Origin: Clostridia bacterium | GTDB lineage: Bacteria; Bacillota; Clostridia; Oscillospirales; CAG-272 | DNA length: 51,596 bases | Reading direction: 5' to 3' | Assembly: GCA_017624395.1 (NCBI GenBank) | Contig: JAGANE010000251.1 | Span: forward strand, 1 to 51,596 | Part shown: positions 3,767-33,548 of the stretch, one piece after another | How the letters are laid out: each line of letters begins with the position of its first letter | Position numbering within the stretch: position 1 is the stretch's first letter | Notes under the pieces: generated by a model | What the model was told of the DNA's origin: nothing | Database searches by the model: none | The model's input: only the letters and a program-made list of their open reading frames with translations | Position numbers and translations under genes: made by a program

Positions 3767-3803
3767 GAACCGCTTACCGAGCATGGTAAGCGGTTCTTTT
3801 TTT
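3767..3803. terminator. bidirectional intrinsic terminator
   Basis: Stem GAACCGCTTACC (3767-3778) / GGTAAGCGGTTC (3785-3796), flanked by an A-run and T7. Confidence 0.8.
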
Positions 3804-4764
3804 ATTGCACAGGATAGGAAACCAAACGGTTGGCAAAGAAGAATTTTCCAACCACGTACTTGTTGCATGCCGACTCAAAGCTGATGACCACGCGATCTCC
3901 CACAATCGTCAGTCCCTCGCTAAAGGCAGGCATATCTACCGTTTTTTGATGGGTTGCAGAATCCAAATAATACAGAGGAACGCTCTTGCCCGAAACCTCA
4001 ATCATCTCGCCCTTGTTCGTCAATCCCTTGTAAAAATCAAGCTTGGACGAGGTAACGCCCCATGAAGATGAAAGAATAAAGGTATCTCCCTGAACCGCAA
4101 AGCCCTGTACCTGATCGCGAATGGAGATGGAATACAAGGGGTATTCCTCGGCAAGCGCGCCGTTGTGATCTAACAGATAGCAGGAAACCAACGCCTTATG
4201 ATCGTCACCTGCGGGAGTGGTCTTGTGGTGCGTGGGATTGGTTTCATAATCCTCGGCGCGATAAAACTCGCCAACGTAAATAAAGTTGCCCGAAGCAAAG
4301 CAGAAGGATGCTTGCGTATCCACGGGGAAAATACCAATGGATGCCACGCTTGCACCGTCCTGTGCATTTTTCAGATCATCATAACGGAAGATGATCAGCT
4401 TGGATTCGCTCGCCACGTAAACGTAGTCGCCCGCGCGTGCAATTCCGCCGCCGTGTCCCTCCCAAGGATTTCCACCCTCGTCCACGGGTGTTACCTGCTT
4501 GACGTCCTCTCCCTTCACCAAAAACAGCTTTAAGAGATGTCCGTCACCGTAGCCCGAATGAAGATAGCCGCCCTCGCCATCATAGGAAAGCCCTTGCGGC
4601 ACAAAGCCCTCGGAAAGTCCCGGAATCTGCTCTTCAAATTTGCGATTTGCAAGATAATCGGGATAAACCACGCATTTTGCGATCTGCAATCCCGTCCAAA
4701 CAACGAGGAACAACAAAATCAGCACACAGAAAAAATTAAGTAAAACAATACCAAGCTTTTTCAT
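3802..4764 (-). CDS. hypothetical membrane-anchored extracytoplasmic protein, possibly repeat/beta-propeller-like
   Basis: ORF 3802..4797. Start moved to ATG 4764 (MKKLGIVLLNFFCVLILLFLVV signal-anchor), 9 nt after AAAGGAG. ATG 4797 lies inside the promoter. I recognise no family. Confidence 0.6.
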   Translation of the reverse strand: MKKLGIVLLNFFCVLILLFLVVWTGLQIAKCVVYPDYLANRKFEEQIPGLSEGFVPQGLSYDGEGGYLHSGYGDGHLLKLFLVKGEDVKQVTPVDEGGNPWEGHGGGIARAGDYVYVASESKLIIFRYDDLKNAQDGASVASIGIFPVDTQASFCFASGNFIYVGEFYRAEDYETNPTHHKTTPAGDDHKALVSCYLLDHNGALAEEYPLYSISIRDQVQGFAVQGDTFILSSSWGVTSSKLDFYKGLTNKGEMIEVSGKSVPLYYLDSATHQKTVDMPAFSEGLTIVGDRVVISFESACNKYVVGKFFFANRLVSYPVQ

Positions 4765-4797
4765 CGTAAAATACTCCTTTGTTTTCAATATATCCAT

Positions 4798-4826
4798 ATT
4801 ATAGCATGTTTTTGATGTAAAGTCAA
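4798..4826 (-). promoter_or_regulatory. near-consensus sigma-A promoter
   Basis: Minus-strand TTGACT (4826-4821), 17 nt, TGcTATAAT (-10 at 4803-4798). Confidence 0.65.
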
Positions 4827-4831: not shown

Positions 4832-4870
4832 AAAAAGAGATCCCTTCTTCAACACCGTGAAAAAGGGATC
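4832..4870 (-). terminator. intrinsic terminator ending the 13030->4880 operon
   Basis: Stem GATCCCTT (4839-4846) / AAGGGATC (4863-4870). On the minus strand it is followed by a U-run (plus-strand A5 at 4832-4836). Confidence 0.6.
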
Positions 4871-4879: not shown

Positions 4880-7090
4880 TTACGGATATTGATCGGTGGT
4901 GGGCAAAGCAAATCGTCTTGCATAGCCCACAGCGTAAGGCAGAGGCAGCTGAACCGCATAATCGCTGTTGGTATAATGCTCCTTGACACCAAGCTCGGTG
5001 TAAATGTAGCGGTCAATGACATAATAGGATGTGGTTCCAATCCCCGACACCAGCTCCTCAAATGACGATTGGCTGCAAGGCCAGAAGCAGGTAGAGGGAG
5101 CGACCGTGCGATAAAATGCCTTGCTGGCACCTTGATTTCCATGGTGCGAAACCTGCAGAATATCGCTTTTAAGCGTTGCCGCCGTGTATCTCTGCAAAAG
5201 CTTTTTACTGCCCTGCGTAAACAGATCACCCGTGATCAGCACCTGACACTTTCCATCGTCGCTCTGATCGGGCACAGTCATACGGAATACGGTGGAAGCA
5301 TCGTTGAAATAATGCAATCTTGACGGAAAATGATCTTCAATGGTAAAGAGAATCTCAAAATTCAAGCCGTACTGATAGAATTTCATTCCCGTGTGCAAGG
5401 CAACGTAATCAAAGCCTCCCTTGACCTGATTTTTTGCCTTTTCCACACGTCCCGCCGCCATATGGAAATCGGGGTTTTTAGAGTTATAGGCAACCGACGA
5501 AGGCACGACACATTCGTAATATTTTTCAATGGTTACCTTTTGTCCGTAAACCTCGCAGAATTTGCGGAAAACGTTGATATGGTCGGCATGGCAGTGAGTA
5601 ATGAGCCAGCCGCGGATCACGATCTTTCCGTCGGGACGCTTGTTGAGCTTGTTGAGCGTGTTCCAGATACGAACACGGTCATTGTTGGTCAAGCCCTTGG
5701 AGGCTGCCGAAGCATTTGTGGTACTACCGCTGTCGATCAGGAAGAACGAACCGTCCTCCAAGGTCATCACGTAGCCCATACCGCCCGAATTGGTGTTATA
5801 ATCCAATTGGAGCTGTGTGATCGACATATCGGTCACCTTTTGGTACTTTTCGGTAGAGCTTTGCGGATATTCTACGTCGTCGGGATCTCCCACAAACAGA
5901 CGCGTCACCTTTTCATTGGCGGAATAAGACATATACACACGGATCTTTTTGGTCTCGTAGCAATCAAAATAGTTTGCCTCGATCTCATTTTCAAAGGTCT
6001 TGGTATAGCCAAGCCCCTCCAGCTTTGCGGCATATGCCTCGTATTCCTCCTGCGTGGTTCCCGCAATGTAATAAAGCATCTCGTTGTAATAGCACTCGGA
6101 AACCGAGACCAAAACACCGCCCTCATATTCGGGGAGAGAGAGGATCCAATTGCCGTTGGAGCGCGCGCCCACGGGAGCCAAGGACACGGTGGTTCCCTTG
6201 GAAAGAATGGTTTTAAAAAGCTTTCCTGCCATTGCAGTGGTGGCAGGACCGTGACCTGCGATCACGATCTTTCCGTTGACGTATCCCGTACCGTATTGCG
6301 TGTAATCAAGCGATTTTAAAAACGCAGTGTTTTCCTCGCGATTGGTGCTTCCCAAAAGGATCTCGTTTGCCACGGGAGCTGCGGCATCGGTGGTTACGGT
6401 CACGTTGGCACCGCAATCCATCAAGAGGTCGCGCAGATCCATTGCAAGCTGCACCTCATAATCGATACCGTTATTGGCGTAGGTGGTATCAACGGAATCG
6501 TCCAGCGTTGCGCTGTAAACGATGGTATAGGGCGTGTTTTTAAGATCTACGTCGGTATAGGGTTGCTTGAGAACAAAATCGTTTGCAAGGCTGATGGTGC
6601 CTTGAGGATCACCTGTTTTTCTGATGATATTGTGAATAAAATACTCCACGGCATCGGCAGTAGCAAGCTCGTCAACACCGTTGATAATGATGGTGCCTCC
6701 CTTGTTTTGAATGACGTAACCCGATTCTATCCCCGCAAGCGACTCGGCGCTTGCCGCGCGGTTGGTGGCACCGATCAGGATCTCCTTGTAGCTTGCATCC
6801 TCGGCAGTAATGTCGTCCTCACGAAGCATTACATCCTTTCCCGTATATGCCTGCAGGAGCGAGACCATACGTCTTGCCGAGTCACGCAGATCGTCCTTGA
6901 TCTTGTAGCTGACAATGATGCGGTAATGATCCAAGGTGAGTGCATTGGGATCGACGTCATCGGCGGTATTCTCCGCTACGGTGGTCTCCTCGGTTGTATT
7001 TTTGTTTCCGTTGCAGGAGGCAAACGCGCCAAGCAGCATCAACAGGCACAGGAGCGCCGAAAGCAATCTTTTCAGCATTGTTTTTTTCAT
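4880..7090 (-). CDS. lipoprotein with ComEC-type MBL-fold hydrolase domain (paralog 1)
   Basis: ORF 4880..7183. Start moved to ATG 7090 (MKKTMLKRLLSALLCLLMLLGAFASC, lipobox-like), which overlaps the upstream stop as ATGA. HCHADH at 5579-5596. VLITGD...QVSHHGNQGA signature. Two N-terminal alpha/beta-like modules. Confidence 0.8.
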   Translation of the reverse strand: MKKTMLKRLLSALLCLLMLLGAFASCNGNKNTTEETTVAENTADDVDPNALTLDHYRIIVSYKIKDDLRDSARRMVSLLQAYTGKDVMLREDDITAEDASYKEILIGATNRAASAESLAGIESGYVIQNKGGTIIINGVDELATADAVEYFIHNIIRKTGDPQGTISLANDFVLKQPYTDVDLKNTPYTIVYSATLDDSVDTTYANNGIDYEVQLAMDLRDLLMDCGANVTVTTDAAAPVANEILLGSTNREENTAFLKSLDYTQYGTGYVNGKIVIAGHGPATTAMAGKLFKTILSKGTTVSLAPVGARSNGNWILSLPEYEGGVLVSVSECYYNEMLYYIAGTTQEEYEAYAAKLEGLGYTKTFENEIEANYFDCYETKKIRVYMSYSANEKVTRLFVGDPDDVEYPQSSTEKYQKVTDMSITQLQLDYNTNSGGMGYVMTLEDGSFFLIDSGSTTNASAASKGLTNNDRVRIWNTLNKLNKRPDGKIVIRGWLITHCHADHINVFRKFCEVYGQKVTIEKYYECVVPSSVAYNSKNPDFHMAAGRVEKAKNQVKGGFDYVALHTGMKFYQYGLNFEILFTIEDHFPSRLHYFNDASTVFRMTVPDQSDDGKCQVLITGDLFTQGSKKLLQRYTAATLKSDILQVSHHGNQGASKAFYRTVAPSTCFWPCSQSSFEELVSGIGTTSYYVIDRYIYTELGVKEHYTNSDYAVQLPLPYAVGYARRFALPTTDQYP

Positions 7091-7995
7091 CGTTCGGTCT
7101 CCTTTCTTTTTCCGATCATCGGAACGGCTCCCGAAAGCACGACCAGCAAAGCACCAAGCCCTGCCGAAAGCGTGGAAGAACATCCCTCCTGTGTGGGTTC
7201 GGGGGTAGGATCGGTGTTCTTTTCTTCCGTCTCAACGGGTTGTTTGACGGGAGGCTCGATGATGGTCGCATCAACCTCTCTGTAGTCGGGCTTGACGGCA
7301 TTGGGATCCTTGGTAAAGATCGAGCATTCCCCCCAAGCACAAGCGCTGGAACTGTAGCTGCTATCGGCAACCACAATCAGAGAAATCGTATGCACGCCCG
7401 TAATGTCCACGTTAAATTCCCCGTAGTTATAAACCACCGATTTGTTAGAGCAAGCCAATTGTACAAAGCCTTTGCCATCTCCGTAGTCCCCGTATACCAT
7501 AAACCAGACACCTGCCGAATTGCGGTTGGTGAGTCCTGCCGCGGCATAAAAATGATTGAACTTGTACTGACCGTTGGGATCGGTATATTTTTGAATGTCC
7601 ACGGTGATCTGACTATATCCCGGCTCACTCGGAGAGTAGTCCGTCACAGGATGTGTGCCAAAGCCCTTGGCAAATTTGTGGACCTGCGAAATTGCAACCC
7701 CCGCTCCCGTTTCTCCCTTGTAGGGCGCATCCTTGAAAGGGGTGTTGCCTCCTGCCGCAGTTCCCGTAAAGGGCAGATCCGAAAGATAGACCTTGGCATT
7801 GTTTCCCGCCTGCCAGCTACCGTAAGGCTTGGACTCGGGGTTGGTGATCTCATCATATACGATGGGTTCAAAATTTGCAGTTTGCTCGCGCTTAAGGTTG
7901 CTGATATTGGCAGTTGCCGCGAAGGCGGGAAGTATGCAGACAACCGTCAAAATGCTTAGCGAAAGCAACAGAAGCAGCATTTTTCTCAATTTCAT
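7087..7995 (-). CDS. secreted NPCBM-like carbohydrate-binding module protein with C-terminal hydrophobic anchor
   Basis: 302 aa. Signal peptide with AFA/A cleavage. VYLSDL...KGFGTHP...FYAAAGL...VWFMVYGDYGDG...ITGVHTISLIV pattern resembles NPCBM (PF08305). C-terminus is a Pro/Glu/Thr linker, then LSAGLGALLVVLSGAVPMIG, then KRKETER. Confidence 0.7.
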   Translation of the reverse strand: MKLRKMLLLLLSLSILTVVCILPAFAATANISNLKREQTANFEPIVYDEITNPESKPYGSWQAGNNAKVYLSDLPFTGTAAGGNTPFKDAPYKGETGAGVAISQVHKFAKGFGTHPVTDYSPSEPGYSQITVDIQKYTDPNGQYKFNHFYAAAGLTNRNSAGVWFMVYGDYGDGKGFVQLACSNKSVVYNYGEFNVDITGVHTISLIVVADSSYSSSACAWGECSIFTKDPNAVKPDYREVDATIIEPPVKQPVETEEKNTDPTPEPTQEGCSSTLSAGLGALLVVLSGAVPMIGKRKETER

Positions 7996-8028
7996 ATGTA
8001 ACAGTCCTTTCTGTTATTTCAAGGGAGC

Positions 8029-8160
8029 TTACTTGGTAAAGCGGTCAAACGAGACCTTGATCTCGTCCTGTCCCTCGCCCACCGACAGTGGAGAGGTGCG
8101 GATCAAATCCTCCTCTGCCACGCAAAGCACCGTAAGCATGGGTGAAATATAAAGCTTCAT
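8029..8160 (-). CDS. candidate 43-aa small ORF (absent from the ORF track)
   Basis: ATG 8160 lies 7 nt after AAGGAG and 2 nt after the TGA of the upstream gene. Peptide MKLYISPMLTVLCVAEEDLIRTSPLSVGEGQDEIKVSFDRFTK, TAA at 8029-8031. Confidence 0.4.
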   Translation of the reverse strand: MKLYISPMLTVLCVAEEDLIRTSPLSVGEGQDEIKVSFDRFTK

Positions 8161-8162
8161 GA

Positions 8163-11100
8163 TCATTCTCCTTGTGCCGTGTATTGTACCGTGACCGTGG
8201 TCTTTCGGCTACACGCATCCTCTCCGTCCATACAGGTGGCGGTGATCTCAAACGTCGGGGCAACATCGGTTGGAATATCGGTGATCACAATCACCACCAC
8301 GTATTTCATTCCAAGATCCTCGGCGGAGATCACAGCATCGGCATAGCCACCGAATGCCGAACAGTCCGCTTTGATAGATTCGTAAACCTTACTCACGGGA
8401 ATATCCACGGTAACGTCTGCATAGGTAACAGCAAAGCAGAGATCCGAAAGATCCACACGGTCAAGTGCCGCAACCAATCTTGCATGATAGGTTCCGTTCT
8501 CGCCTTTCATCGTCTGATAAAATTCAAGTGTAGGCGCGGGGTTTTGGTCACTGCTGTAAACGGCGGCATTTGCCCAAGCGCAAGCGCAGGCGGAGTTTCC
8601 GCTCACGCCCAAAACGTTCAGCTTTAAAAGCTTTGCTCCGACCAAACGCCCGCTAATGGAAATCTCCAACATTTTTGTACCGTTTGCCGCACTGCTTACC
8701 GCCGTAGTGGTCAAAAGGCTGACGTAGCCGTTACCGTCACCGTAGTCGGCAAGGATCTCCCCCACAACTCCTGTGGTACTACCACCCGTCATGACAAGCA
8801 CCGCATAAAAGCTATCAATATTCAAATCGGAAAGATCCACCACCAATTCGGCAGCCTTATTGGAAAGCGGATGTGTCCCAATCCCCTTTGCAAAGGTCAG
8901 CGAGGTACCGTTGACGGTAATACCGTTTGCTGCGGTGCCCTTGTACTCATCATCCTTGGCAGGCAAAGAGCCATTGTTGGTGGTACCGCTGTACGGAAGA
9001 TCAGAAAGATAGATCGGATTGCGCGAGGAAATGTCGGTTACAGACGAGATGGCATTCATGGTATAATCCTCTGCACGCAAGGTCACCTTTTCGGGAAGAC
9101 CAGCTTCGGTCAGAGTCAGCGTCTCTGCATCCTGCGTTGTTGGATCGTAAGGAAGCACAAAGCGGAAGCTTGCATCACTGTTGACGTGATACTCGGCGGT
9201 CTTTTGTGCCAAAGCCTTGTCAACACAACCGTAAGAAGTTTGCAAGCCGTCGGACAAAAAGAGATCGTAAAGCGTTTGACTTGTGGGCCAAAGTGCCACC
9301 ACACCGTCGTTTTCTCCGATCACCGCCTCGTAAAATGCCTCGGTAGCTCCCTGATTGCCGTGGTGCGCCACCTGTACCATATCCGCCGCCAGAACACTTG
9401 CGGGATATCTTGTTGTCATCATCTCGCAGGCATCCGTAAAAATGTCACCCGTGATCAGCACGCGATAATCGTCATCCGTACTTTGGGTATCGGTGCCCGT
9501 GGAAAGGCGCACGACCGTAGAAGCATTGTTAAAATAATGCAACGTGTTGGGGTAGAGATCCTCTACGGTATAAAGCACTTCAAGTTCAAGTCCGTAAAGC
9601 GAGAATTTCATTCCCGAATGCAGGGAAACGATATTTTTTGCACCGTGCGCATCGGCAATTGAGGTTTCCACTTTCCCCTTCAAAAGATGGTAAGCGGGAT
9701 TTTTGGAATTGTACGCCACCGATTCGGGAACGGCACAAATATAAATATTTTCCAGTGTCACTCCCGATCCATAATTCTCGCAAAATCTGCGCATAACCAT
9801 AATGTGGTCATCATGCTCGTGGGTGAGGAACCATCCGCGGATCACGATCTCACCGTCGGGACGGATGTTCAGCTTGTGAAGAAGATTCCAAAGACGGACA
9901 TGATCCTGATTTGCGTCACTCGTGCTACCGCTATCGATCAGGAAGAAGGAGCCGTCCTCCAAGGTCACCACGTAGCCCATACCGCCTGCATTGGTTGCAT
10001 AATCCAATTGCATTTGCGTGATGGAAATGGGAGCGAGGCGTGTGACACTGTCGGCACTGGCGGGAACAGAAACGCCCTCAACCGACTCGGTAATCACACG
10101 GATCGCATTTTCATCGGGAACGTAATAGGTGTAGATCCGCACGCCCGTCTCGGCATTTTGGAGCATACGGTATTCGTTATTTTCGCCGTTGGTATTGGAG
10201 GGCATGGCATTGGAAAAAACCTCCGCATAGCCGCTGTTTTTCAGACCTGTGCAGTAAGCCTCAAACGCGGCAAGGCTCGCGTTCTTGTAGTAATGTAGCA
10301 GTCCGTCACCGTAGCACTCGGACACACCCGCAAGGGTTGCGCCCAAAACCGCAGGGGCAGCGATCCAGTTGGAATTCGGTTGCACCGTAGATGCGCCCAA
10401 CGTCATGGAAAGCTTGAGATTTTCAAGCAACCACTTCCCTGCCATCATATCTGCCGCCGTACTCCACCCGCCAATCACCATTTTGCCGTCCACAACAGCA
10501 ACGCCGTATTGGTTGGGTGCAAGCGCAAGAAGATACTTGGAGCTTGCCTCATAAGCAGTAAAGCCGACAAGGATATCGGCATTTTTTGTCGTATCTGCAT
10601 CGGTAGAAACGGTCACGTCGGTCACGCCAAGCGCAATCAGTGCATCCTTGATTTGGTGCGCAAGATCGACCGCGTAGTCATAATTGTTGCCGTTATAACG
10701 GAATTTTCCGTCCCCCGTTGTGTCGTCCAAGGTGTTACTGTACGCAATGGTGTAGCTCTTAGCGAGGTCAAAGGTAAACGTTGTATCGGTCAGGGCTGCA
10801 GCCTCGGTTGCCGACAGCAAAATGCCCGTTGCGCTGTTCACCTTGGAATAATCGGGCTTTTGTGCCGTTGCATCCGCCTTGAACACACAAGCATTTGCCC
10901 ATACGCAGCCCGAGGAGGCGCTTGACACGTTTGCCCAAACCGAAAGCTTAAGCCGCTTGACGCCCGTAAGCTCCACGTCAAATTCACCCATGGAGTAGGA
11001 AGCAAGCACGTCTGACGAGGCAATGGAAACAAAGGTTCCGTTACCGTAATCTGCCAAAACCTCAAAAATAACACCCTCGGATGCAAAATTGGTCAAGCCT

Positions 11101-11552
11101 ACCGTGGCGTAAAAACGGTCACAGTCAAGCGTGGATAGATCGTAGATCACAAAGCCGGGGGCAGTATTGCTTTTGGGATGCACCCCTAACGCTTTTTTAT
11201 ATTGAAAGGTTTGTCCAAGCGTTACTCCATCCTTCTCCTCACCGTCGTTGGCGTTGTATTCATCATCGGGGAATGCCGTTTTATAGGCACCTTTGGTTGA
11301 ATCATAGGTGCATTCACTGCTCTCCCAGGTGAGATCGGAAAGATAGATCACCGTATCGGTGTTCTTCCCTACCCTCCAAGCCCCAAAGGGCTTGGACTCG
11401 GGATTGGTGGTGCGATGGTAGGTCACCTTGGAATAGTTTGACGTTGCCTCACTCGGCTTGCTCTCTGCCGAAGCCACGGGCAGGATCAGTGCCGACAGCA
11501 AAAGGCAGAGTGTCAAAATCAAGGAAAGTATACGAATTTTTTGATTCATCAT
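8163..11552 (-). CDS. 1129-aa secreted multidomain protein: NPCBM-like / alpha-beta module / ComEC-type MBL / NPCBM-like / C-terminal beta-rich domain (paralog 2)
   Basis: Signal peptide with VASA/E cleavage. IYLSDL...KALGVHP and IYLSDL...KGIGTHP modules. HEHDDH at 9804-9821. VLITGD...QVAHHGNQGA. AAGGA SD 8 nt upstream. Confidence 0.85.
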   Translation of the reverse strand: MMNQKIRILSLILTLCLLLSALILPVASAESKPSEATSNYSKVTYHRTTNPESKPFGAWRVGKNTDTVIYLSDLTWESSECTYDSTKGAYKTAFPDDEYNANDGEEKDGVTLGQTFQYKKALGVHPKSNTAPGFVIYDLSTLDCDRFYATVGLTNFASEGVIFEVLADYGNGTFVSIASSDVLASYSMGEFDVELTGVKRLKLSVWANVSSASSGCVWANACVFKADATAQKPDYSKVNSATGILLSATEAAALTDTTFTFDLAKSYTIAYSNTLDDTTGDGKFRYNGNNYDYAVDLAHQIKDALIALGVTDVTVSTDADTTKNADILVGFTAYEASSKYLLALAPNQYGVAVVDGKMVIGGWSTAADMMAGKWLLENLKLSMTLGASTVQPNSNWIAAPAVLGATLAGVSECYGDGLLHYYKNASLAAFEAYCTGLKNSGYAEVFSNAMPSNTNGENNEYRMLQNAETGVRIYTYYVPDENAIRVITESVEGVSVPASADSVTRLAPISITQMQLDYATNAGGMGYVVTLEDGSFFLIDSGSTSDANQDHVRLWNLLHKLNIRPDGEIVIRGWFLTHEHDDHIMVMRRFCENYGSGVTLENIYICAVPESVAYNSKNPAYHLLKGKVETSIADAHGAKNIVSLHSGMKFSLYGLELEVLYTVEDLYPNTLHYFNNASTVVRLSTGTDTQSTDDDYRVLITGDIFTDACEMMTTRYPASVLAADMVQVAHHGNQGATEAFYEAVIGENDGVVALWPTSQTLYDLFLSDGLQTSYGCVDKALAQKTAEYHVNSDASFRFVLPYDPTTQDAETLTLTEAGLPEKVTLRAEDYTMNAISSVTDISSRNPIYLSDLPYSGTTNNGSLPAKDDEYKGTAANGITVNGTSLTFAKGIGTHPLSNKAAELVVDLSDLNIDSFYAVLVMTGGSTTGVVGEILADYGDGNGYVSLLTTTAVSSAANGTKMLEISISGRLVGAKLLKLNVLGVSGNSACACAWANAAVYSSDQNPAPTLEFYQTMKGENGTYHARLVAALDRVDLSDLCFAVTYADVTVDIPVSKVYESIKADCSAFGGYADAVISAEDLGMKYVVVIVITDIPTDVAPTFEITATCMDGEDACSRKTTVTVQYTAQGE

Positions 11553-11563
11553 GTCGATATTCC

Positions 11564-13030
11564 TTACGTATTGTTGACGGCAGCAAGATCACGAGCCTTG
11601 GCTCTTGCCTCTCCCATCAGGCTGGCAACAATTGTGTTGATGGTATTGCAAACACCAAACAAGGTCTTGCTTCTGTCAACAAAGGTCTGCTTTTCCACAG
11701 CAGAACGAATGCTCGTTGCAAATACAGTACCGCCCCAGTCGATAACACGTGTGTTTCTGACGATCTCCAGCATTTCTACCGATTCGGGATCACGCAGGGA
11801 TCTTCCCTTGATCTGAATATCGTAGAATGCGGGGAACACGTACTTGGAGCTTCCTGCGGCAAGTGCCTCGATCAGAACGCTCATCATATCGGGGTTGGTG
11901 TGGTTGTAGGGTACGACGTGCAGCCAAGCATCAACCACGCGGGTATAGTAACGGCTTTGCTCCTCGTTGTACTTGGGCCAAGGCAAAACGCCGTAATCCC
12001 AGCCCTCAATATCCTTGAGCAGAAGCAGCTTACCAACCACGGTACCCACAAACAGGCTATCGCCCTCCTTAAACACATTGTAGCAATCGTCGGGAGCACT
12101 GTAATCGTAATCGTAGCCCATATAATTAAAATCGATCTTATCAAGAACCGTGGTGGTAATGCTATCCATCTTGGCGTTGGATGCCGCACTGAACACCAGC
12201 TTATCCTCGGTCTTGGTCACGTAATTTTCGCCCGCGGCGGCGTAGAAGGTGGAAAACAGATAGTCGCCGTGACCGTACAAGCCGTAAAAGGTTACCTCAT
12301 TGTCCTGATTGACCTCTGTTACCGTTTCCATTTGCTTGAACATTTCCTCAAACGTCCATGCATCGTTCTTTACCATGGAATAAAAGTTCCCCATACCACG
12401 GTCGGTGGCAACCTGCTTATTGTATGCAATACAGGTGGAGCGCTGGAAGGTGTAAAGAGACTCCTCGGTGTAGCACAGGAACTGATAGCCGTTAAAGGTC
12501 ATCGCATCGTTGATGTCCTTGAGGTAATAATCCTTGCTCTGGTCGATGTACTTCATTTTGCTGACGGGCAAAAGCTCGTTTCTCAATGCCGCGGAGTAAG
12601 CATCGCGGTTGATGAGCATGATCATATCAAAATCATTCTCCCCCGTACCGCCGAGTGCCTGCTTGGAAAGCTGATCGTTACAGCCCTTATAGGAGGTCTC
12701 CGATGCCTCAAAATAAAGGTTGAAGCGCTCCTCAATTTCACGGTTCCTCTCGTAAAGAGAGTCGTCGAGAACGGTACCTCCCAGCTCCTCGGTGTCAAAC
12801 AGCGTGTAGGTGCCGTCGGTGCTTGTCACGCTGAGTACGTTTACGGTGTCACCGTTAAAGTCAAAGCTGCCAAGGTCGTCAAGATAGGGATCCTCCACCG
12901 TCTCGCCGTTTTGCGGCGCTTGGGTGGTGCTTTCAGGGGTCTTGGTGCTGTCCTTGTCACATGCGGCAAGCAATGGAAGCAGCATCAGAATTGCCAACAG
13001 AAGACACAGAATTGAGGTTCTCTTTTTCAT
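11564..13030 (-). CDS. ABC-type extracellular solute-binding-like lipoprotein (orphan)
   Basis: 488 aa. Canonical lipobox LLAAC. Size and composition resemble family-1 sugar SBPs of Clostridia. AAGGAG SD upstream. Confidence 0.65.
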   Translation of the reverse strand: MKKRTSILCLLLAILMLLPLLAACDKDSTKTPESTTQAPQNGETVEDPYLDDLGSFDFNGDTVNVLSVTSTDGTYTLFDTEELGGTVLDDSLYERNREIEERFNLYFEASETSYKGCNDQLSKQALGGTGENDFDMIMLINRDAYSAALRNELLPVSKMKYIDQSKDYYLKDINDAMTFNGYQFLCYTEESLYTFQRSTCIAYNKQVATDRGMGNFYSMVKNDAWTFEEMFKQMETVTEVNQDNEVTFYGLYGHGDYLFSTFYAAAGENYVTKTEDKLVFSAASNAKMDSITTTVLDKIDFNYMGYDYDYSAPDDCYNVFKEGDSLFVGTVVGKLLLLKDIEGWDYGVLPWPKYNEEQSRYYTRVVDAWLHVVPYNHTNPDMMSVLIEALAAGSSKYVFPAFYDIQIKGRSLRDPESVEMLEIVRNTRVIDWGGTVFATSIRSAVEKQTFVDRSKTLFGVCNTINTIVASLMGEARAKARDLAAVNNT

Positions 13031-13075
13031 GGAAATTCTCCTTTTTTATTTATTTTTTGTTGTTCCATTTTTGTG

Positions 13076-13089
13076 TGTAATCGGTTACA
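13076..13089. promoter_or_regulatory. cre / LacI-family-type operator palindrome in 5' UTR
   Basis: mRNA sense TGTAACCGATTACA matches the cre consensus TGWAANCGNTNWCA at every defined position. It lies between the promoter (13173-13201) and start codon 13030. Confidence 0.5.
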
Positions 13090-13172
13090 TAATTAGGATA
13101 ACACGATGCCGCAGAGAAAAAAATCGGTGCGGCATAACGAAAAAAATTTGTATTCAGGATGAATTTACTAAA

Positions 13173-13201
13173 ATTATATCATATAAAAAAACAAATGTCA
13201 A
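13173..13201 (-). promoter_or_regulatory. consensus sigma-A promoter of the SBP-MBL operon
   Basis: Minus-strand TTGACA (13201-13196), exactly 17 nt, TATAAT (13178-13173). It is followed by a leader of about 135 nt containing a hairpin (13106-13135). Confidence 0.7.
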
Positions 13202-13206
13202 CTTTT

Positions 13207-14799
13207 TTATCTCTTTACGCGTTCACTTTTTCCTACAACGTACGGAAGGGGGAGCGTATCGTTGTGCCGTGTGTGCAAAAGGATCTCCTCAGCCCCCATC
13301 TCGTAATAAAGCTTTCGTGCAAGGCGGTGATGATCCTCCACGGGATTTTCAATATTATTCTTGACCAATTGATCGCGCAAGGACCACAAAAGAACCTTGC
13401 CCTCCATCAGGCAGTAAAGCTCCTCCTCTGCCCCGTTGAGTCCGTGGTGCGCCAGTTGAACGATCTCGCTTTTGAGTGTCTTTTTGCTCCAATGCGTACG
13501 TAAGAATTGCGATGGTGCGGTGCAAATATCCCCCAGCCACATAGTGGTCTGACCACGATAGGTCATACGGGCAACAAACGACGAATCGTTGAAATAATGC
13601 AGGCGCTGTGGAAACAGATTGTCCACCGTATAAAGGATCTCAAAGTCAAGCTCACCAAAGGAAAACCGATCCCCCGTGTGCAACGTAACGGTATCAAAGC
13701 CACCGATCCACTCACGTGCCTTGGCAAGACGTCCGCGCGTGGTGGGATAGTCGGGATTTTTGGCGTTGAAGGAAACGGCATCGCTGCAGGAGCAATCGCA
13801 ATAACGCTTGACGGTAACCTTTTTGCCAAAATCATGACAAAAACGGCAAAACCAATAAAAAACGTTAAAATGGTCGGCATGCTCGTGTGTCATCAACCAT
13901 GCGGAGACCACGATCTCGCCGTCGGGACGCTTGTTCAATTCACAAAGAAGCGTATAGAGCCGCAGATAATCGTAGGTTTTGGGCTGTCCGCCCGCAACGC
14001 GCACCTGACCGCCGTCAATGATCACAAAGGAGCCGTCCTCCAAGGTCAGGATGTAACACATACCAAACGAGCCGCCAAAATAATCCAACGCCATTTGCGT
14101 CAAGGTGACGGGCGCATTCAAGGAATCATCCAACGCCCACGGCTCGACGACCGAGGTCTTTTCCAAGGATCCGCTCACTACGCGCAGCGTATGCGTGGCG
14201 CGAAGATAAAGCAATGACAAAAAATGACTTCCCTTTACAAAACGGTATGCGCGATTGCCGTCTCGGAGGTTTTGAAAAATACTTTCATACCCGTTTTGCA
14301 AAAGACACGCAAGATAATCCTCCAGCGCAGAGAGACCGACACGCCCCCACACCCATTCCACACGGTCGTGTGAGCAATCGCTCATTCCAAGATATTTCCC
14401 TGCCGCAAAGCGTGGAAAATCAACGATCCATTCCTCAACCGTCTCCACCAACGAACATCCGTCGGTCAGCTCCAAAGAATCCATGGCGAGGAATTTTTCC
14501 GCCGCCCTCATGGTTGCCGCCACGCAATGTCCCACCACGGCGATGCGGTCGCCAAAGCAAAAAATACCATATTGATTGTAGGCAAGGCGTGCCAGTGCCT
14601 CTCGCGTTTCGGCGCGGCGTGTATTGCCAATCAAAATCTCGTGCTTGTGAGGCTTGATGTCATTTGTGACCGTAGCTCCCGAAAGCCGCTCGGCAATCCT
14701 TTTTGCCAACACCACCTCGGGATCCAGCCCTCCGTTGGCGTATTTTTCCTTTTCCACGTCATCAACACCGACGGGATAAACTACGTATCTCTTTTTCAT
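13207..14799 (-). CDS. cytoplasmic ComEC-type MBL-fold hydrolase (paralog 3)
   Basis: 530 aa with no signal peptide. HEHADH at 13870-13887. QLAHHGLNGA. The N-terminal module has EILIGNTRR...NQYGIF...IAVVGH. The ATG overlaps the upstream TGA as ATGA (14796-14799). Confidence 0.8.
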   Translation of the reverse strand: MKKRYVVYPVGVDDVEKEKYANGGLDPEVVLAKRIAERLSGATVTNDIKPHKHEILIGNTRRAETREALARLAYNQYGIFCFGDRIAVVGHCVAATMRAAEKFLAMDSLELTDGCSLVETVEEWIVDFPRFAAGKYLGMSDCSHDRVEWVWGRVGLSALEDYLACLLQNGYESIFQNLRDGNRAYRFVKGSHFLSLLYLRATHTLRVVSGSLEKTSVVEPWALDDSLNAPVTLTQMALDYFGGSFGMCYILTLEDGSFVIIDGGQVRVAGGQPKTYDYLRLYTLLCELNKRPDGEIVVSAWLMTHEHADHFNVFYWFCRFCHDFGKKVTVKRYCDCSCSDAVSFNAKNPDYPTTRGRLAKAREWIGGFDTVTLHTGDRFSFGELDFEILYTVDNLFPQRLHYFNDSSFVARMTYRGQTTMWLGDICTAPSQFLRTHWSKKTLKSEIVQLAHHGLNGAEEELYCLMEGKVLLWSLRDQLVKNNIENPVEDHHRLARKLYYEMGAEEILLHTRHNDTLPLPYVVGKSERVKR

Positions 14800-15896
14800 T
14801 TTTGAAAATCCTTGCTCTTGGCAACGATCTGTGCCATATGAGGACAGATGGCTTCCACCATGGCGTGATAACCAAGATCGTTGGGGTGAACCCCGTCCAA
14901 AATACCATCATCGTAGCCAAAGGGCTTCATATATTCACTTCCGTCCACAAAGTAAACGTTTTCGTCGCCTGCCGCCTTTGCATCGGCGTAGGTCTTGTAA
15001 ATCACGTCACGTGCGCGCTTTGCCGTTACAGACTCGGGATAAACGTTGGGGCGTGTCAGCATGATCACGGGAAGTGCGGGGTGCGATTGACGGATACGGT
15101 CAAACAGTGCCTTGTGCGTCTCCTCCAGATATTCGGGTGTGGGAGCGTTATGGTCGTAATCAAGAACCAACGCCGCCATATCCAGCCCTGCAAGATATTC
15201 CGCCATAGCGGGCTCTCCCTTGCACTGCCCCGAAAATCCGAGATTGTAAATATTGAGATTGAAGCGGCGCGACAGACGGTTGGAATAGGTAAGACCCGGA
15301 CGCGTGGTACCCGTGCCGTGTGTGATCGACGAGCCGTAAAAAACAACGGGCTTTTGATTGGAATACGGCAAGCCCTTGCCAAGCGTGGAGCCGGGTGCAA
15401 CTCCCACCCACACGTTTTTGACACGTGCGTGGACGGGGAAATTGATGGTCAAAAATCTTTCCTCTGCGGTGCGGAACTTGATGATCTGCTCGTAGCCCTC
15501 CTTCATACCGTAGGGCGGTGTAAAGGGGCGCTCAAAGTGCGAGCCCTCGGGCGTATCGACGTAAAGATCAAACGCGCCCGCCTCCATCAAGGGATAATGC
15601 GAGCCATACCCAACCGCACACATCTCGGCGCGAATGGCAACGCAAGGTGAATTTGTGGAAAAACGGATCCTTCCCCCCGTTGGCTCATTGGAAAGACGGA
15701 GAACGCCCTCGCTGACAGAAGCCGCCGCTTCCTCAGGCATACGGACAAACCATTCCTCGTCCTCGGGGCGGTACATTCCGTAAAGCTCAAACGGAGCACG
15801 ACGAACATCGTACATGTGAAGATCCACATCGCGGATCGATGCGGTAACGATGAGATTTTTGTCAACCTCTACGTAAGAAAACTCATTCTCACTCAT
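14796..15896 (-). CDS. SGNH/GDSL hydrolase with N-terminal GxDLY-type beta-sandwich domain (putative carbohydrate esterase)
   Basis: 366 aa. GAFDLY motif, then FYGSSITHG (Ser block) and DGVHPNDLG (His block). AAAGGAG SD. Confidence 0.8.
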   Translation of the reverse strand: MSENEFSYVEVDKNLIVTASIRDVDLHMYDVRRAPFELYGMYRPEDEEWFVRMPEEAAASVSEGVLRLSNEPTGGRIRFSTNSPCVAIRAEMCAVGYGSHYPLMEAGAFDLYVDTPEGSHFERPFTPPYGMKEGYEQIIKFRTAEERFLTINFPVHARVKNVWVGVAPGSTLGKGLPYSNQKPVVFYGSSITHGTGTTRPGLTYSNRLSRRFNLNIYNLGFSGQCKGEPAMAEYLAGLDMAALVLDYDHNAPTPEYLEETHKALFDRIRQSHPALPVIMLTRPNVYPESVTAKRARDVIYKTYADAKAAGDENVYFVDGSEYMKPFGYDDGILDGVHPNDLGYHAMVEAICPHMAQIVAKSKDFQK

Positions 15897-15958
15897 GCCT
15901 ACAGCTCCTTTGCTATTATTTTCAAAAGGCTTTTATATAGAAAAGAATTCCAAAAAAT

Positions 15959-15987
15959 ATTCTACCATAAACGAAAAAAGTTTTCAA
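15959..15987 (-). promoter_or_regulatory. candidate sigma-A promoter of the SGNH-MBL operon
   Basis: Minus-strand TTGAAA (15987-15982), 17 nt, TGgTAGAAT (-10 at 15964-15959). Confidence 0.6.
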
Positions 15988-15988
15988 G

Positions 15989-16002
15989 TGTTATCGGTTA
16001 CA
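15989..16002. promoter_or_regulatory. second cre / LacI-type operator, abutting the -35
   Basis: mRNA sense TGTAACCGATAACA matches TGWAANCGNTNWCA. It shares the 16-nt core ATGTAACCGAT(T/A)ACAC with the site at 13076-13089. Confidence 0.5.
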
Positions 16003-16097: not shown

Positions 16098-16134
16098 ATA
16101 AAAAATGGATGTCGCGAGAAACTCGCGGCATCCA
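16098..16134 (-). terminator. intrinsic terminator of the PRTase gene
   Basis: Stem GGATGTCGCGAG (16107-16118) / CTCGCGGCATCC (16122-16133), followed on the minus strand by a U6 run. Confidence 0.75.
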
Positions 16135-19250: not shown

Positions 19251-20168
19251 TCAAAGTTGCTTTAAAATCGGTTCCTCTCGCTCCATGTAAACCGCAGAAT
19301 CATGGATCAAAAGATCGCGATATGCCGAGGGGGGCATTCCCACGTGCTTGCGAAAGCAACGCGAAAAATAGGCAGGGCTTTCAAAACCAAGTCTTTCGGA
19401 AATCTCGCTGACGGTGAGTCGCTTTTGCTTGAGCAGGCGCTTTGCCTCGGAGATCTTCAATCCAAGGTAATAGTGCATCACACTGTCACCCGTGCTTGCC
19501 TTGAACAACTCGCACAGGCGGCTTTTGCCAAAGTGAAAGACCTCCGAAAGCATATCCAGCGTGATGCGGTCATAAAGATGGGCGGAAAGATAAGTACAAA
19601 TTCTTTGTGCCGTGGTATCTCCTGCCGACTCGCGCACAAACACCCCCGTACCGTCCTCACCGCTCTCTTCCGCACTGCGGATCAAACGCAGGAGCAGCTC
19701 CTCCAAATACAAACGGATCAGCTGCTGTCCCCCCACGGGGGCATCGGAACGAAGCTTGAGCGGATAGACCGACGGCAAAAAGGTTGCGGTGCTTTCCTCA
19801 ATCAGCCGCTTGATCAGTGAACGAAGCTCTGCCGAGGGCTTTACGGTTCGTCCGCAAAAGAATCGCATGGCAGGAGAACGGCAATCAAAGGTCATAATAA
19901 ACACCGAGGCGCCCGACACGCCGTCACACTCCACGCCGTGAAATTCGTTGGGCTGATGAAAGGTGATCTCCCCCTGACGCAGGCGATAGCGTCGCTCGCC
20001 CGCACGCACGCTCAATTCACCGCGATCCACGTAAACAAGCTCCCAAAAATCGTGTGCCTCGCCTTTGGTAAAGAAAGAGGGAGAAAGCTCGTAGCAAAGA
20101 ATGGTCGCCACGCGCGTGACCTGGAGTGTATTTTTTAGAGACACCTTAACGTAGGCTTGATTTGACAT
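19251..20168 (-). CDS. AraC family transcriptional regulator (cupin sensor + HTH)
   Basis: 305 aa. The N-terminal cupin-like half has HDFWELVYV. The C-terminal half has the AraC HTH signature (..ISERLGFESPAYFSRCFRKHVGMPPSAYR). Confidence 0.85.
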   Translation of the reverse strand: MSNQAYVKVSLKNTLQVTRVATILCYELSPSFFTKGEAHDFWELVYVDRGELSVRAGERRYRLRQGEITFHQPNEFHGVECDGVSGASVFIMTFDCRSPAMRFFCGRTVKPSAELRSLIKRLIEESTATFLPSVYPLKLRSDAPVGGQQLIRLYLEELLLRLIRSAEESGEDGTGVFVRESAGDTTAQRICTYLSAHLYDRITLDMLSEVFHFGKSRLCELFKASTGDSVMHYYLGLKISEAKRLLKQKRLTVSEISERLGFESPAYFSRCFRKHVGMPPSAYRDLLIHDSAVYMEREEPILKQL

Positions 20169-20364: not shown

Positions 20365-21072
20365 ATGTATACTGTTCTTGCCATTACCACACATCCCGAC
20401 GACATGGAGATCAACTGTGCGGGAACACTGCTCAAATGCAAGGCACGCGGTGACCGTGTAGTCGTTTGCCATCTTTGCAACGGCGACCTCGGACACGAGA
20501 TCATTCAACCCGAGGAGCTTGCCACAATCCGTGCGGGCGAGGCGAAGCGCAGCGGCGACATGGCGGGCTTTGAGGTTATTTGGGGAGGATTTCACGACGT
20601 GGACATCTACTCCGAAAACCGCGAGGCACGCGACAAGGTGGTTGACGTGATCCGCCAAGTCAACCCCGACTTTATCATTACGCACGATCCCAACGACTAC
20701 ATGCCCGACCACACCGCAACCTCACGTCTGGTCTTTGATGCAAGCTTTGCGGCAACCGTTCCGCATTATCAGTCGGGCGTTGACACGCCTGCCCGTCTTG
20801 TTCCCATTTACTACATGGACAACCTTGCAGGGGTCAATTTTGTTCCCACCGAGTTTGTTGACGTTTCCGAGCAGATCGACCAAAAGCTTGCGATGCTGGA
20901 ATGCCATGAATCGCAGGTGGTTTGGATGCGCGACCATGATAACATCGACTTCCCCGATATGGTCAAAACCTGCTGCCGTTATCGCGGCTATCAGTGCGGC
21001 GCTGATTACGCCGAGGCGTTCCGTATGTGTCAGGCATATCTCAAGGGAACCACCAAGCGTCTCTTACCTTAA
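20365..21072 (+). CDS. PIG-L/LmbE family deacetylase
   Basis: 235 aa. AITTHPDDMEI zinc-binding motif. GAGGAGGA SD. Confidence 0.85.
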   Translation: MYTVLAITTHPDDMEINCAGTLLKCKARGDRVVVCHLCNGDLGHEIIQPEELATIRAGEAKRSGDMAGFEVIWGGFHDVDIYSENREARDKVVDVIRQVNPDFIITHDPNDYMPDHTATSRLVFDASFAATVPHYQSGVDTPARLVPIYYMDNLAGVNFVPTEFVDVSEQIDQKLAMLECHESQVVWMRDHDNIDFPDMVKTCCRYRGYQCGADYAEAFRMCQAYLKGTTKRLLP

Positions 21073-22094: not shown

Positions 22095-23060
22095 ATGAAG
22101 GAACGCAGTGGAATTGCCGTTGCGGGATCGATCCTTGTAGATAAGATCTATACGATCTCCGCTTATCCCAAGGCAGGAGAGCTGACACAAATCCGCTCGA
22201 TCACGCAGGCGGTGGGAGGACTTGTTCCCAACAACGGTATCGGCCTGTAAAAGCTTTGCCCCTCGCTTTCCGTCTTTGCCATCGGCAAGGTTGGAAACGA
22301 CGAGCAGGGAGACTTTGTTTTGAAGGCACTGCAGAACAACGACGTGGACACCTCGGGTGTCCGCGTCGCCTGCGGTGAGGTAACCAGCTTTACCGACGTC
22401 ATGAGCATCACGGGAGGTCAGCGCACCTTCTTTACCTACCCCGGTGGAAGTGCCGCCTTTGGATACGACGACATTGATTGGGATTCCCTCACCTGCAAAA
22501 TGCTTCACCTCGGCTATTTTCTGCTTTTGGAAAAGGTGGACTGCGGTGACGGCTTGCGCATTTTAAAGGAGGCACAAGCACGCGGAATCAAGACCTCCAT
22601 TGACCTTGTCAGCGAAAATTCCGACCGTTACACCGCAGTCATTCCTTGCTTGCCTTATGTTGATAATCTGATCGTAAACGAGCTGGAGGCAGGAAAGCTT
22701 TGCGGAATGGAGCCGACCGAGGAGAATCTCCCTCGCATTGCAAAAAAGCTGCTTGACATGGGTGTACGGGAGCGCGTGATCATTCACACCCCCGCGCTTG
22801 GTATTTGCGCGAGTGTAACCGATTGCATCTCTCTCCCCTCCTACCGTTTGCCCGCAGGCTTTATCAAGGGTACAACAGGCGCGGGCGACGCCTTTTGCTC
22901 GGGTGCCTTGATTGCAATCGATCAAGGAAAGAGCGACCGTGAAATTTTGGAATATGCCCAGACCGCGGCAATTGCCGCTCTGCGCACGCCCGATGCCACC
23001 GGAGGTCTGGAACCCCTGAGCACCCTTTTTGGCACGTTTGAAAATTTTGAAAGAATCTAA
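22095..23060 (+). pseudogene. PfkB-family carbohydrate kinase interrupted by an in-frame TAA (codon 52)
   Basis: ATG 22095 (MKERSGIAVAGSILVDKIY...) is in the same frame as track ORF 22320..23060. TAA at 22248-22250 sits within the conserved ...GGLVPNNGIGL*KLCPSLSVFAIGKVGND region. C-terminal TTGAGDAF motif. Confidence 0.8.
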
Positions 23061-23927: not shown

Positions 23928-24112
23928 TTCCCCAAAAAAGCGAACAGGCACACGCCCAAAAATGAGTGTGCTTATCAAAAAAAGTATAAATTCAAACGTT
24001 CCCACAGATCGAGGTAATCGGTTTGTGGGAACGTTGTTGTATAAGCAGAAGAAGTGATTCAGAAAAAGGTTTGCTTACGCAAACGATATCATTGATTTGC
24101 GTAATACCTAAT

Positions 24113-25240: not shown

Positions 25241-25270
25241 TCCTTACTTCCTTCTGCTGTCTTGTTTTAA

Positions 25271-26065: not shown

Positions 26066-26139
26066 TTTTCCCCCTTTTATCGTAAGCTTCACATTTGTAT
26101 TACAAATGCATCGGGCAAGCTTTTCTCCCTATTATAGTG

Positions 26140-30502: not shown

Positions 30503-30853
30503 TTAAGGCTCCTTAAAATGCTCGTCCTCCGCCTTGACCAATGCAAGCTTTTGCACAAGGCGATTGAGACGGTGCTTTTGCACCGAAAGCTCGATTGCCA
30601 TGTTAAACAGCTTGATGAGGACAATAAAGATCATAAACAAAAAGACAAAGTTTGCAGGAGACTGTATTCCAAACAGCTCCGATGCAAAAATGGCGATCTG
30701 CGGAAAGATACTGATGATCAACAGCAACACCGCCGAAACAATCCAATAAATGGCATCGTCGATATAGAGCTGAGAGCGTCGGATCTTTTTCAACACAAAC
30801 AACAGCACCAAAAAGGATACGGCAATCAGTGAAATGCGCAAAACGATACTCAT
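30503..30853 (-). CDS. DUF2304-type small membrane protein
   Basis: 116 aa with 3-4 TM spans. ATGA overlap with the upstream GT2 gene, a typical partnership. Confidence 0.65.
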   Translation of the reverse strand: MSIVLRISLIAVSFLVLLFVLKKIRRSQLYIDDAIYWIVSAVLLLIISIFPQIAIFASELFGIQSPANFVFLFMIFIVLIKLFNMAIELSVQKHRLNRLVQKLALVKAEDEHFKEP

Positions 30854-33546: not shown

Positions 33547-33548
33547 CG

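Follow-up and report, generated by a model that had tools for sequence, protein, structure and literature searches.

A conserved two-operon cluster of ComEC/Pce-type MBL-fold paralogues in gut Clostridia, with a possible part in scavenging phosphodiester-containing glycans

The 51,596-nucleotide (nt) stretch of DNA analysed here, hereafter the window, is the whole of contig JAGANE010000251.1 of an uncultured Clostridia bacterium (Oscillospirales, CAG-272; GenBank assembly GCA_017624395.1), and carries at positions 4880-16002 a gene cluster built around three paralogous proteins with a metallo-β-lactamase (MBL) fold. The cluster comprises the genes called A to F here and a small open reading frame (ORF), orf43, all tightly packed on the minus strand. 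It is real and conserved, it is matched by no described system that we found, and its MBL proteins belong to a large, unnamed family without a characterised member. We read it as a catabolite-controlled two-operon system that scavenges a phosphodiester-containing glycan or glycopolymer, a reading to which we give about an even chance. An earlier note on this DNA had singled out the same locus, and its ORF positions and HxHxDH coordinates are exact.

Judged by sequence, A (4880-7090; 736 amino acids, aa), C (8163-11552; 1129 aa) and E (13207-14799; 530 aa) are true paralogues, as the earlier note had proposed: over 550 aa, A shares 43% identity with C (E=3e-139) and 34% with E (E=5e-97), a likeness far above chance. 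Their common core is an alpha/beta domain resembling the N-terminal domains of glycoside hydrolase (GH) families GH84 and GH20, then a beta-sandwich, then the MBL domain; in E these occupy aa 1-110, 115-212 and 234-530. The alpha/beta domain is present twice in A (~6611-6943 and ~6191-6529), ahead of the beta-sandwich (~5846-6163) and the MBL domain (~4916-5818), with limits derived from BLAST. C, delimited by BLAST against B and against itself, opens with an NPCBM module (~10839-11420), continues with the alpha/beta domain (~10428-10769), the beta-sandwich (~10053-10400) and the MBL domain (~9123-10019), and ends with a second NPCBM module (~8538-9020) and a C-terminal domain without assignment (8166-8537). 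This NPCBM-core-NPCBM architecture is peculiar to C among the family members examined. Two candidate C-type orthologues, P0055 and P0074, were rejected: they are tandem fusions of two complete cores (1103-1133 aa) without NPCBM. At NCBI, A is 100% identical to a protein from a metagenome-assembled genome (MAG) labelled 'MBL fold metallo-hydrolase', and C is labelled 'NPCBM/NEW2 domain-containing protein'.

The catalytic motifs are intact in all three paralogues. HxHxDH starts at residue 499 of A (HCHADH, nt 5579-5596), 578 of C (HEHDDH, 9804-9821) and 305 of E (HEHADH, 13870-13887), and in E it is followed by FNDSS at 403, D424 and HHG at 451. An alignment of 28 family sequences keeps H305, H307, D309, H310, N404, D424, H451, H452 and G453 invariant (E numbering); by alignment register, N404 would correspond to a metal ligand of the pneumococcal enzyme Pce. 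Pfam Lactamase_B is matched by A (9e-8, 32.7 bits) and C (1.8e-7, 31.8 bits) above the cutoff of 22.7, and E has no match in the Pfam scan despite its clear homology to both. HxHxDH with the downstream Asp/His ligands, the fold and, for A and C, the Pfam score place the proteins in the MBL superfamily (PF00753 clan). Some cores of tandem-expanded family members carry HxDxDH in place of HxHxDH.

Where within the superfamily do they belong? Single-sequence searches of the PDB return nothing for E, D or B, and for A only ComEC at E=0.03, so that profiles are needed; the family profile reaches ComEC (5.8e-11) and Pce (1e-4) and no other significant match, in keeping with the ComEC-type assignment of the earlier note. 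An AlphaFold2 model of E, built on the 28 family sequences with a mean predicted local distance difference test score (pLDDT) of 93.6, has as its best Foldseek matches in the PDB ComEC (9ic4) and Pce (2bib), both at 1.2e-10. PDB matches at E<=1e-3 number 103, and the 50 best of these are all MBL-fold proteins. After ComEC and Pce come further phosphodiesterases such as YhfI, an ElaC-like protein and PhnP, and the MBL-fold matches also include RNase J, NAPE-PLD and the arylsulfatase 8gyg (1.9e-7). The ComEC-type signature N-[DN]-x-S, [TL]GD and HHG lies in register with 9vc6 and 9ic4 in a hidden Markov model alignment. The N-terminal 230 aa were also modelled with confidence (pLDDT 92.7), as an alpha/beta domain followed by a beta-sandwich; the top Foldseek match of this part, BcsB, was rejected (root-mean-square deviation 18-19 Å, TM-score 0.14).

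Each of the two nearest relatives differs from the present proteins. The MBL domain of ComEC is a proven metal-dependent nuclease, with Pce as its nearest structural relative (PMC12455585; PMC5031224), and the Moorella enzyme has HxDxDH and is Mn-dependent (PMC12455585). ComEC gives the best match by profile and by fold (target-normalised TM-score 0.74) and shares N-x-x-S, (T/L)GD and HHG; unlike it, A, C and E have no competence channel or OB fold (no Competence or DUF4131 match in Pfam), and their context is glycan-related, not one of competence. The NCBIfam ComEC models (TIGR00361, PRK11539) match only through their MBL part, in A over its MBL domain alone, at 21-39 bits against cutoffs of 190-969, and by these measures the three proteins fail as ComEC proper. 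Pce/CbpE (2bib, 1wra) is, like C, a secreted MBL-fold enzyme with HxHxDH; it is a binuclear phosphodiesterase whose MBL module is joined to a targeting module and which trims phosphodiester-linked groups from teichoic acid (PMC4929436). Identity to it is only 12-13%, and A, C and E would fail as Pce proper as well, since Pfam finds no choline-binding repeats in any of them. NPCBM modules stand in their place, the GH84-like N-terminal domain and beta-sandwich are additional, lipoprotein and cytoplasmic paralogues exist, and the genes lie in putatively cre-controlled operons with a binding protein and an SGNH esterase, whereas Pce remodels the wall of the cell that makes it.

The three paralogues are predicted to reside in three compartments, as had been claimed before, on the basis of export signals read from the sequence. 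A has a lipobox (FASC, Cys26) and is a predicted lipoprotein. C has a signal peptide (nt 11466-11552) with predicted cleavage between ASA and E and is a predicted secreted protein. E, like F, has no signal peptide and is predicted to be cytoplasmic. The MBL domain of C is very acidic, with an isoelectric point of 4.6 and a net charge of about -23.

The partner genes connect the paralogues to glycans, and the NPCBM-like, binding-protein and GxDLY-SGNH assignments of the earlier note all score above their Pfam thresholds. B (7087-7995; 302 aa) matches Pfam NPCBM at 4e-9 (37 bits) and C does so in two stretches at 8e-26 (91 bits), against a cutoff of 23.9; B is 37% identical to each NPCBM module of C by BLAST. 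A cleavable signal peptide (between AFA and A) predicts export of B, and its C-terminal tail (nt 7090-7200), with GCSS, a hydrophobic stretch and a KR end, is a putative membrane anchor. D (11564-13030; 488 aa) is a predicted lipoprotein (lipobox LLAAC) matching SBP_bac_8 at 6e-8 (33.2 bits; cutoff 27), and a profile of D-like proteins reaches the arabino-oligosaccharide-binding protein 6rjy (1.3e-4) and maltose-binding proteins. F (14796-15896; 366 aa) matches Pfam GxDLY (5.8e-19, 68.8 bits) and Lipase_GDSL_3 (2.1e-33, 116.6 bits), both with cutoffs of 27; it has an SsfX3_N-type N-terminal beta-sandwich, GSSITHG (Ser block) and DGVHP (DxxH block) can be read in its sequence, and in the PDB the sequences nearest to it are those of the uncharacterised protein 4lhs (2.8e-30) and of SsfX3 (3skv). 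No member of this SGNH Pfam family has been characterised (PMC9487903). A link of the cluster to glycans is supported, by likeness of sequence or fold, by the NPCBM modules of B and C, the GH-like N-terminal domain, the oligosaccharide-type binding protein D and a galactose-binding domain of F5/8-type-C-like character in a family member of Eubacterium segne.

Some features of these partners extend beyond the cluster. The tail of B consists of G-C-(S/Q)-S, some 20 hydrophobic residues and a KR-rich end, and recurs on NPCBM and other surface proteins of related loci, including those at 15010-17178 of L070, a locus of a relative, and at 6148-8871 of L042. It weakly resembles MYXO-CTERM-anchored proteins (E 0.0015 for B, and 0.025), and may be an undescribed sorting signal in Clostridia. 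A second SGNH-type gene in the window (48079-48939, minus strand) matches Lipase_GDSL_lke at 8e-49, another uncharacterised Pfam family, and adjoins a gene for a protein with an RNase T-like exonuclease domain. The small orf43 (8029-8160; 43 aa) is a real-looking gene: it starts MKLYISPMLTVLCVAEEDLIRTS with its ATG at 8160, an AAGGAG ribosome-binding site lies 7 nt before the ATG, within the last codons of C, and homologues occur in L005 (7575-7724) and L070 (3988-4125), besides an 86%-identical copy in a close relative. It belongs to no Pfam or NCBIfam family, and a homology search gave only four proteins. Members are 43-49 aa long with the motif MKxYIxP(6-8)L(2-3)[ED]D[VL]I(1-2)S, and each such gene directly follows one for a large secreted protein; in the window this is C, and in L005 and L070 it is a GGLxG-repeat (GLUG-like) protein of 576-658 aa.

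Tight coupling of the genes, together with promoters and terminators, divides the cluster into two operons, F-E (operon 1) and D-C-orf43-B-A (operon 2), in line with the earlier note. The gene upstream of F ends in a terminator (~16100-16134; hairpin and T-run). Operon 1 has a sigma-70-like promoter, TTGAAA-17-TGgTAGAAT (15959-15987, minus; 10/12 in the promoter scan, with an extended -10 TG), whose -35 box is abutted by the palindrome TGTAACCGATAACA (15989-16002, minus) of the catabolite-responsive element (cre) type, an exact match to TGWAANCGNTNWCA; E and F overlap by 4 nt. The promoter of operon 2 is a perfect consensus, TTGACA-17-TGaTATAAT (13173-13201, minus; 12/12 with TG), and the leader of D, about 140 nt long, contains the second cre-type palindrome, TGTAACCGATTACA (13076-13089, minus; exact on both strands). 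D and C are 11 nt apart, orf43 is translationally coupled to C, and B overlaps A by 4 nt; a longer ORF of A extends to 7183, and it is the lipoprotein start at 7090 that gives the overlap with the stop of B. An intrinsic terminator with a 13-bp stem and a T-run (4839-4870, minus) closes operon 2. Rfam and tRNA scans of the window give no match, and no known riboswitch is present in the leader of D.

The cre-like sites exceed expectation and recur in relatives. The window holds 11 matches with at most one mismatch, against 3.3 expected, a number reached by none of 100 shuffles, and the exact matches in its promoter regions are two, one per operon, as the earlier note had flagged. The orthologous operons of L003, L005, L006, L010 and L070 are likewise preceded by exact cre-type palindromes. 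In L003, L010 and L070 they precede the F-E orthologues, the 14-mer being identical to TGTAACCGATTACA upstream of F in L070, and similar sites precede D in L006. Within 4880-16002 there is no local regulator, and in the window no LacI-family gene; in L005 and L070 such genes lie next to the cluster, from which it follows that the operator may serve a dedicated LacI-type repressor, besides CcpA or in its place. The sites themselves are thus exact and conserved as claimed, and it is their attribution to CcpA that may have to be shared or given up. A third palindrome, TGTAACCGATTGCA, with one mismatch (22814-22827), lies within the ORF of a pfkB-type kinase, some 250 nt ahead of the gene for a xylose-isomerase-like TIM-barrel protein (23073-23927), a gene family that has cre-like sites in L070 too.

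Gene order is conserved along with the operators. The order F-E-(D)-NPCBM protein-A recurs in L001, L003, L006, L013 and L070, so that at least five further genomes share it, all of them Clostridia/Oscillospiraceae MAGs from the caecum of deer or from other samples. In these syntenic relatives E is 49-63% and A 40-58% identical, and the NPCBM protein has one to three modules. The earlier note had named a lack of co-conservation as grounds against its proposal, and the genes prove to be co-conserved. L070 is the closest extended locus: its operon of F and E includes a cytoplasmic GH28 and a GFO/IDH oxidoreductase, and genes for a xylose-isomerase-like TIM-barrel protein, an HpcH/HpaI aldolase, an esterase and a 2-hydroxyacid dehydrogenase belong to its operon of D, the NPCBM protein and A. 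L005 has the same catabolic trio.

The family extends far beyond this synteny. An exhaustive profile search at E<=1e-30 collects 2,398 clusters (50% identity), whose annotations do not go beyond 'MBL fold metallo-hydrolase' or 'hypothetical'; most members are 700-800 aa long and match the profile in two stretches. In the literature on the family, its Pfam domains, MBL-fold and glycan enzymes and teichoicases we found no description of the family or the cluster, and no characterised family matches closely, as the earlier note had said of described systems. Clustering of ORFs across 58 genome loci places a D-like binding protein at 12 loci besides the window, and in L008, L043, L044, L048, L051 and L053/L054 it lies directly upstream of an MBL lipoprotein, usually with an AraC-type regulator. 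D, a binding lipoprotein that the earlier note had called an orphan, is therefore more than that: proteins of its kind keep recurring as partners of the MBL family, in genes immediately next to it. AraC-type regulators occur near family members in 17 other loci, and tandem arrays hold up to four paralogues (L021, 2589-11992; L027, 1-8352). Cytoplasmic short forms of about 400 aa adjoin LplABC-type sugar importers, AraC-type regulators, GH38, GH125 or GH31 genes and EEP-family proteins. GDPD, a GH63/MGH1-like enzyme, GH65 and Metallophos also occur as neighbours; GDPD, EEP or Metallophos genes are present at about 11 loci. For three distant homologues (L007-L009), a first look at the gene context gave no information.

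Two independent fusions provide the most informative contexts. In P0170 the family core is joined to an alkaline phosphatase (2e-58), at a locus that further encodes a GDPD-PHP protein, a solute-binding protein (SBP), two permeases of the ATP-binding cassette (ABC) type, a Zn-dependent alcohol dehydrogenase, a six-hairpin GH and an SsfX3_N-SGNH esterase distantly related to F. In Paenibacillus sepulcri the core and a purple acid phosphatase form a single S-layer (SLH) protein. Both would be explained if a diesterase acted first and a monoesterase second on the same substrate.

From these relations we infer phosphodiesterase chemistry, a division of labour and a class of substrate. Operon 2 would place four proteins outside the cell: the lipid-anchored A, the secreted C, the membrane-tethered NPCBM protein B and the sugar-type binding lipoprotein D. 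A and C would be binuclear-metal hydrolases of the ComEC/Pce branch, C flanked by its two NPCBM modules. The polymer would be held by the NPCBM modules while the MBL domains hydrolyse phosphodiester bonds, either bridging or substituent-carrying, and the oligomers released may be captured by D for an ABC permease encoded elsewhere. In the cytoplasm, E would cut the same type of bond in imported fragments and F, as an SGNH esterase, may remove O-acyl groups. CcpA or a LacI-family repressor would silence both operons through TGTAA[C/G]CGNTTACA operators. The earlier note had likewise proposed an outside-to-inside removal of phosphodiester- or ester-linked substituents; the phosphatase fusions, the phosphatase and phosphodiesterase neighbours and the sugar-ABC and glycosidase contexts would strengthen that proposal, most of these contexts coming from relatives of 23-30% identity.

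Leading candidates for the substrate are phosphoglycans or polyol-phosphate polymers like teichoic acid. The latter are suggested by L071 and L053, where GDPD occurs together with a polyol dehydrogenase, an SGNH esterase and a GH. GlpQ, of the GDPD family, is a teichoicase, and Bacillus subtilis mines teichoic acid for phosphate with PhoA, PhoD and GlpQ (PMC7086022). GlpQ and PhoD are extracellular hydrolases of polyol-phosphate polymers, and GDPD genes neighbour several MBL family members; the folds of GlpQ and PhoD are unrelated to that of the MBL proteins, the two belong to the Pho regulon, and the window cluster has no GDPD gene. The contexts with GH38, GH125 and EEP recall phosphomannan or N-glycan processing: in the yeast-mannan locus of Bacteroides the EEP-fold phosphatase BT3783 lies beside GH38, GH92 and GH125 (PMC4978465), a phosphoesterase within a glycan-utilisation locus, and EEP, GH38 and GH125 also neighbour cytoplasmic members of the MBL family. 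That system is Gram-negative and SusC/D-based, and BT3783 is a monoesterase of another fold. With Gram-positive polysaccharide-utilisation loci the cluster shares a sugar-binding lipoprotein, surface enzymes bearing carbohydrate-binding modules, predicted cytoplasmic finishing enzymes and putative catabolite control; it differs from them in having no GH, permease, ATPase or local regulator and in an enzymatic core of MBL hydrolases. The combination of a GH or lyase, a transporter and a regulator that marks such loci is not present in 4880-16002, and the relative L070 does carry a GH28 and a LacI gene. A reading in terms of inositol or glycosyl inositol phosphorylceramides, suggested by PIG-L, inositol monophosphatase, PfkB and class-II aldolase genes in the window, was dropped, as the cluster is not conserved together with those genes.

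Several observations weigh against the phosphodiester reading. As the earlier note had stated, the cluster has no GH, permease or ATPase gene, and it has no GDPD or phosphatase gene either; GHs, ABC permeases (BPD_transp_1) and ABC ATPases (ABC_tran) are absent from 4880-16002 and from the larger scanned ORFs in the rest of the 51.6-kb window. D thus has no cognate permease or ATPase among those ORFs, and such genes are also absent beside most D-like genes elsewhere. Most of the phosphoesterase and GH contexts come from relatives only 23-30% identical, and some of the genomes are related to each other, so that the independent events are few. The homologue nearest to E, at 78% identity, lies by itself, surrounded by housekeeping genes. 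The fold match of the N-terminal alpha/beta domain to the N-terminal domains of GH84, GH20 and GH138 is weak (E ~6e-3, at a probability of ~1). The acidic MBL domain of C suits a polyanionic substrate poorly, and the partners in L070 suggest acidic plant sugars, not phosphoglycans.

These last two points keep alive another chemistry within an otherwise unchanged architecture and logic, in which the MBL domains would strip a carboxyl-ester, lactone or sulfate group from acidic oligosaccharides of the plant wall (pectin or rhamnogalacturonan type) and F would be an acetyl-esterase. An acidic domain fits a non-anionic or esterified substrate; GH28, GFO/IDH, the HpcH/HpaI aldolase and the 2-hydroxyacid dehydrogenase in L070, the same trio in L005, the arylsulfatase among the fold matches and the fact that the hosts are herbivore gut bacteria all favour it. 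However, the profiles reach only ComEC and Pce, and the N-x-x-S, D and HHG signature is that of their clade, a branch in which we know of no described carboxyl-esterase. Two phosphomonoesterase fusions and the GDPD, EEP and Metallophos neighbours are also hard to explain without phosphate chemistry. We consider a non-phosphate ester unlikely, while giving it some weight.

Could the phosphodiester be that of nucleic acid? If the enzymes were nucleases that scavenge nucleic acids outside and inside the cell, the ComEC-type domain would break down DNA or RNA at the surface and NPCBM would do no more than tether the enzymes to a glycan matrix. A weak NCBIfam match to an anti-phage MBL protein is consistent with this, and alkaline phosphatase, acid phosphatase and EEP partners fit nucleotide breakdown as well as glycan breakdown. 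However, there is no OB fold or other DNA-binding module and the attached modules are of the glycan type; the partner SBP resembles oligosaccharide binders, and the neighbours are glycosidases and sugar ABC transporters rather than nucleoside transporters or 5'-nucleotidases. The charge of the MBL domain of C argues in the same direction, a constitutively folded cytoplasmic nuclease would be hazardous, and motif 2 is HxHxDH as in Pce, unlike the HxDxDH of Moorella ComEC. Nucleic-acid scavenging is, in our judgement, improbable, a little more so than the plant-wall ester.

Pce itself provides the precedent (PMC4929436) for remodelling of the cell's own envelope, in which the surface enzymes would trim the wall polysaccharide or teichoic acid of the producer and E and F would process precursors or salvage what turnover releases. 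In the window, genes for wall-polysaccharide biosynthesis are clustered at a distance of 15-25 kb, and GT2 glycosyltransferase, BacA and polysaccharide deacetylase genes flank the cluster in L001 and L013. These flanks are not conserved across loci, though, whereas the cre/LacI-type operators and the AraC and sugar-ABC contexts are hallmarks of catabolism, and arrays of up to four paralogues with a sugar SBP fit nutrient capture better. Only a small chance can be given to such a role. Slighter still is the chance that the same phosphodiesterase chemistry serves a Pho-regulon-like acquisition of phosphate and not of carbon. The alkaline phosphatase, purple acid phosphatase and GDPD partners do resemble the PhoA/PhoD/GlpQ set of B. 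subtilis (PMC7086022), but the operators are of the cre/LacI type and not Pho boxes, the window has no pst or pho genes, and it is sugar SBPs, glycosidases and sugar-catabolic genes that accompany the family. Phosphate, besides, is rarely limiting in gut contents.

Other features of the window can be noted in passing. The wall-polysaccharide biosynthesis cluster (30850-42542) encodes GT2, UDP-N-acetylglucosamine 2-epimerase, a DXD sugar transferase, GT4, DUF2142 and BacA proteins, and includes a 1107-aa protein (37523-40846) with two GT2 regions and a region like the rhamnosyltransferase WsaF. Immediately downstream of operon 2, the gene at 3802-4797 (minus) encodes a 331-aa membrane-anchored protein and has a near-consensus promoter of its own (4798-4826); the protein has no Pfam or NCBIfam match and no homologue in any fetched locus. 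A gene for an AraC-family regulator (19251-20168, minus) and one for a PIG-L/LmbE-type de-N-acetylase (20365-21072, plus) are divergent. The stretch 24001-26000 is an island of low GC (0.37, against ~0.50 elsewhere), with genes for a calcineurin-like phosphoesterase (24113-25240) and a peptidase of family S51 (25271-26092), and may have been acquired horizontally.

What would the phosphodiester reading mean for gut Clostridia? A large share of gut microbial biomass consists of phosphodiester-linked polymers, for example teichoic acids, phosphomannans and many capsules, and how anaerobic Firmicutes dismantle them is essentially unknown. In its widest form, which we hold tentatively and well short of an even chance, the proposal is that the cluster forms the core of a system, not recognised before, that lets gut Clostridia feed on phosphodiester-bridged glycopolymers (the teichoic acids of other Gram-positives, phosphomannans, capsules), and that A, C and E found a new and very large family of glycopolymer phosphodiesterases, with the SBP partner, carbohydrate-binding modules and paired extracellular and cytoplasmic isoforms as its hallmarks. 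The family would then be the phosphate-ester counterpart of the carbohydrate esterases. If it is this missing class of diesterase, thousands of genes would be re-annotated, models of Gram-positive glycan utilisation would gain a new auxiliary activity, and enzymes for trimming teichoic acids or phosphoglycans would come to hand. If the chemistry is otherwise, the family is still a large, conserved and surface-exposed set of enzymes of gut Clostridia without a known function.

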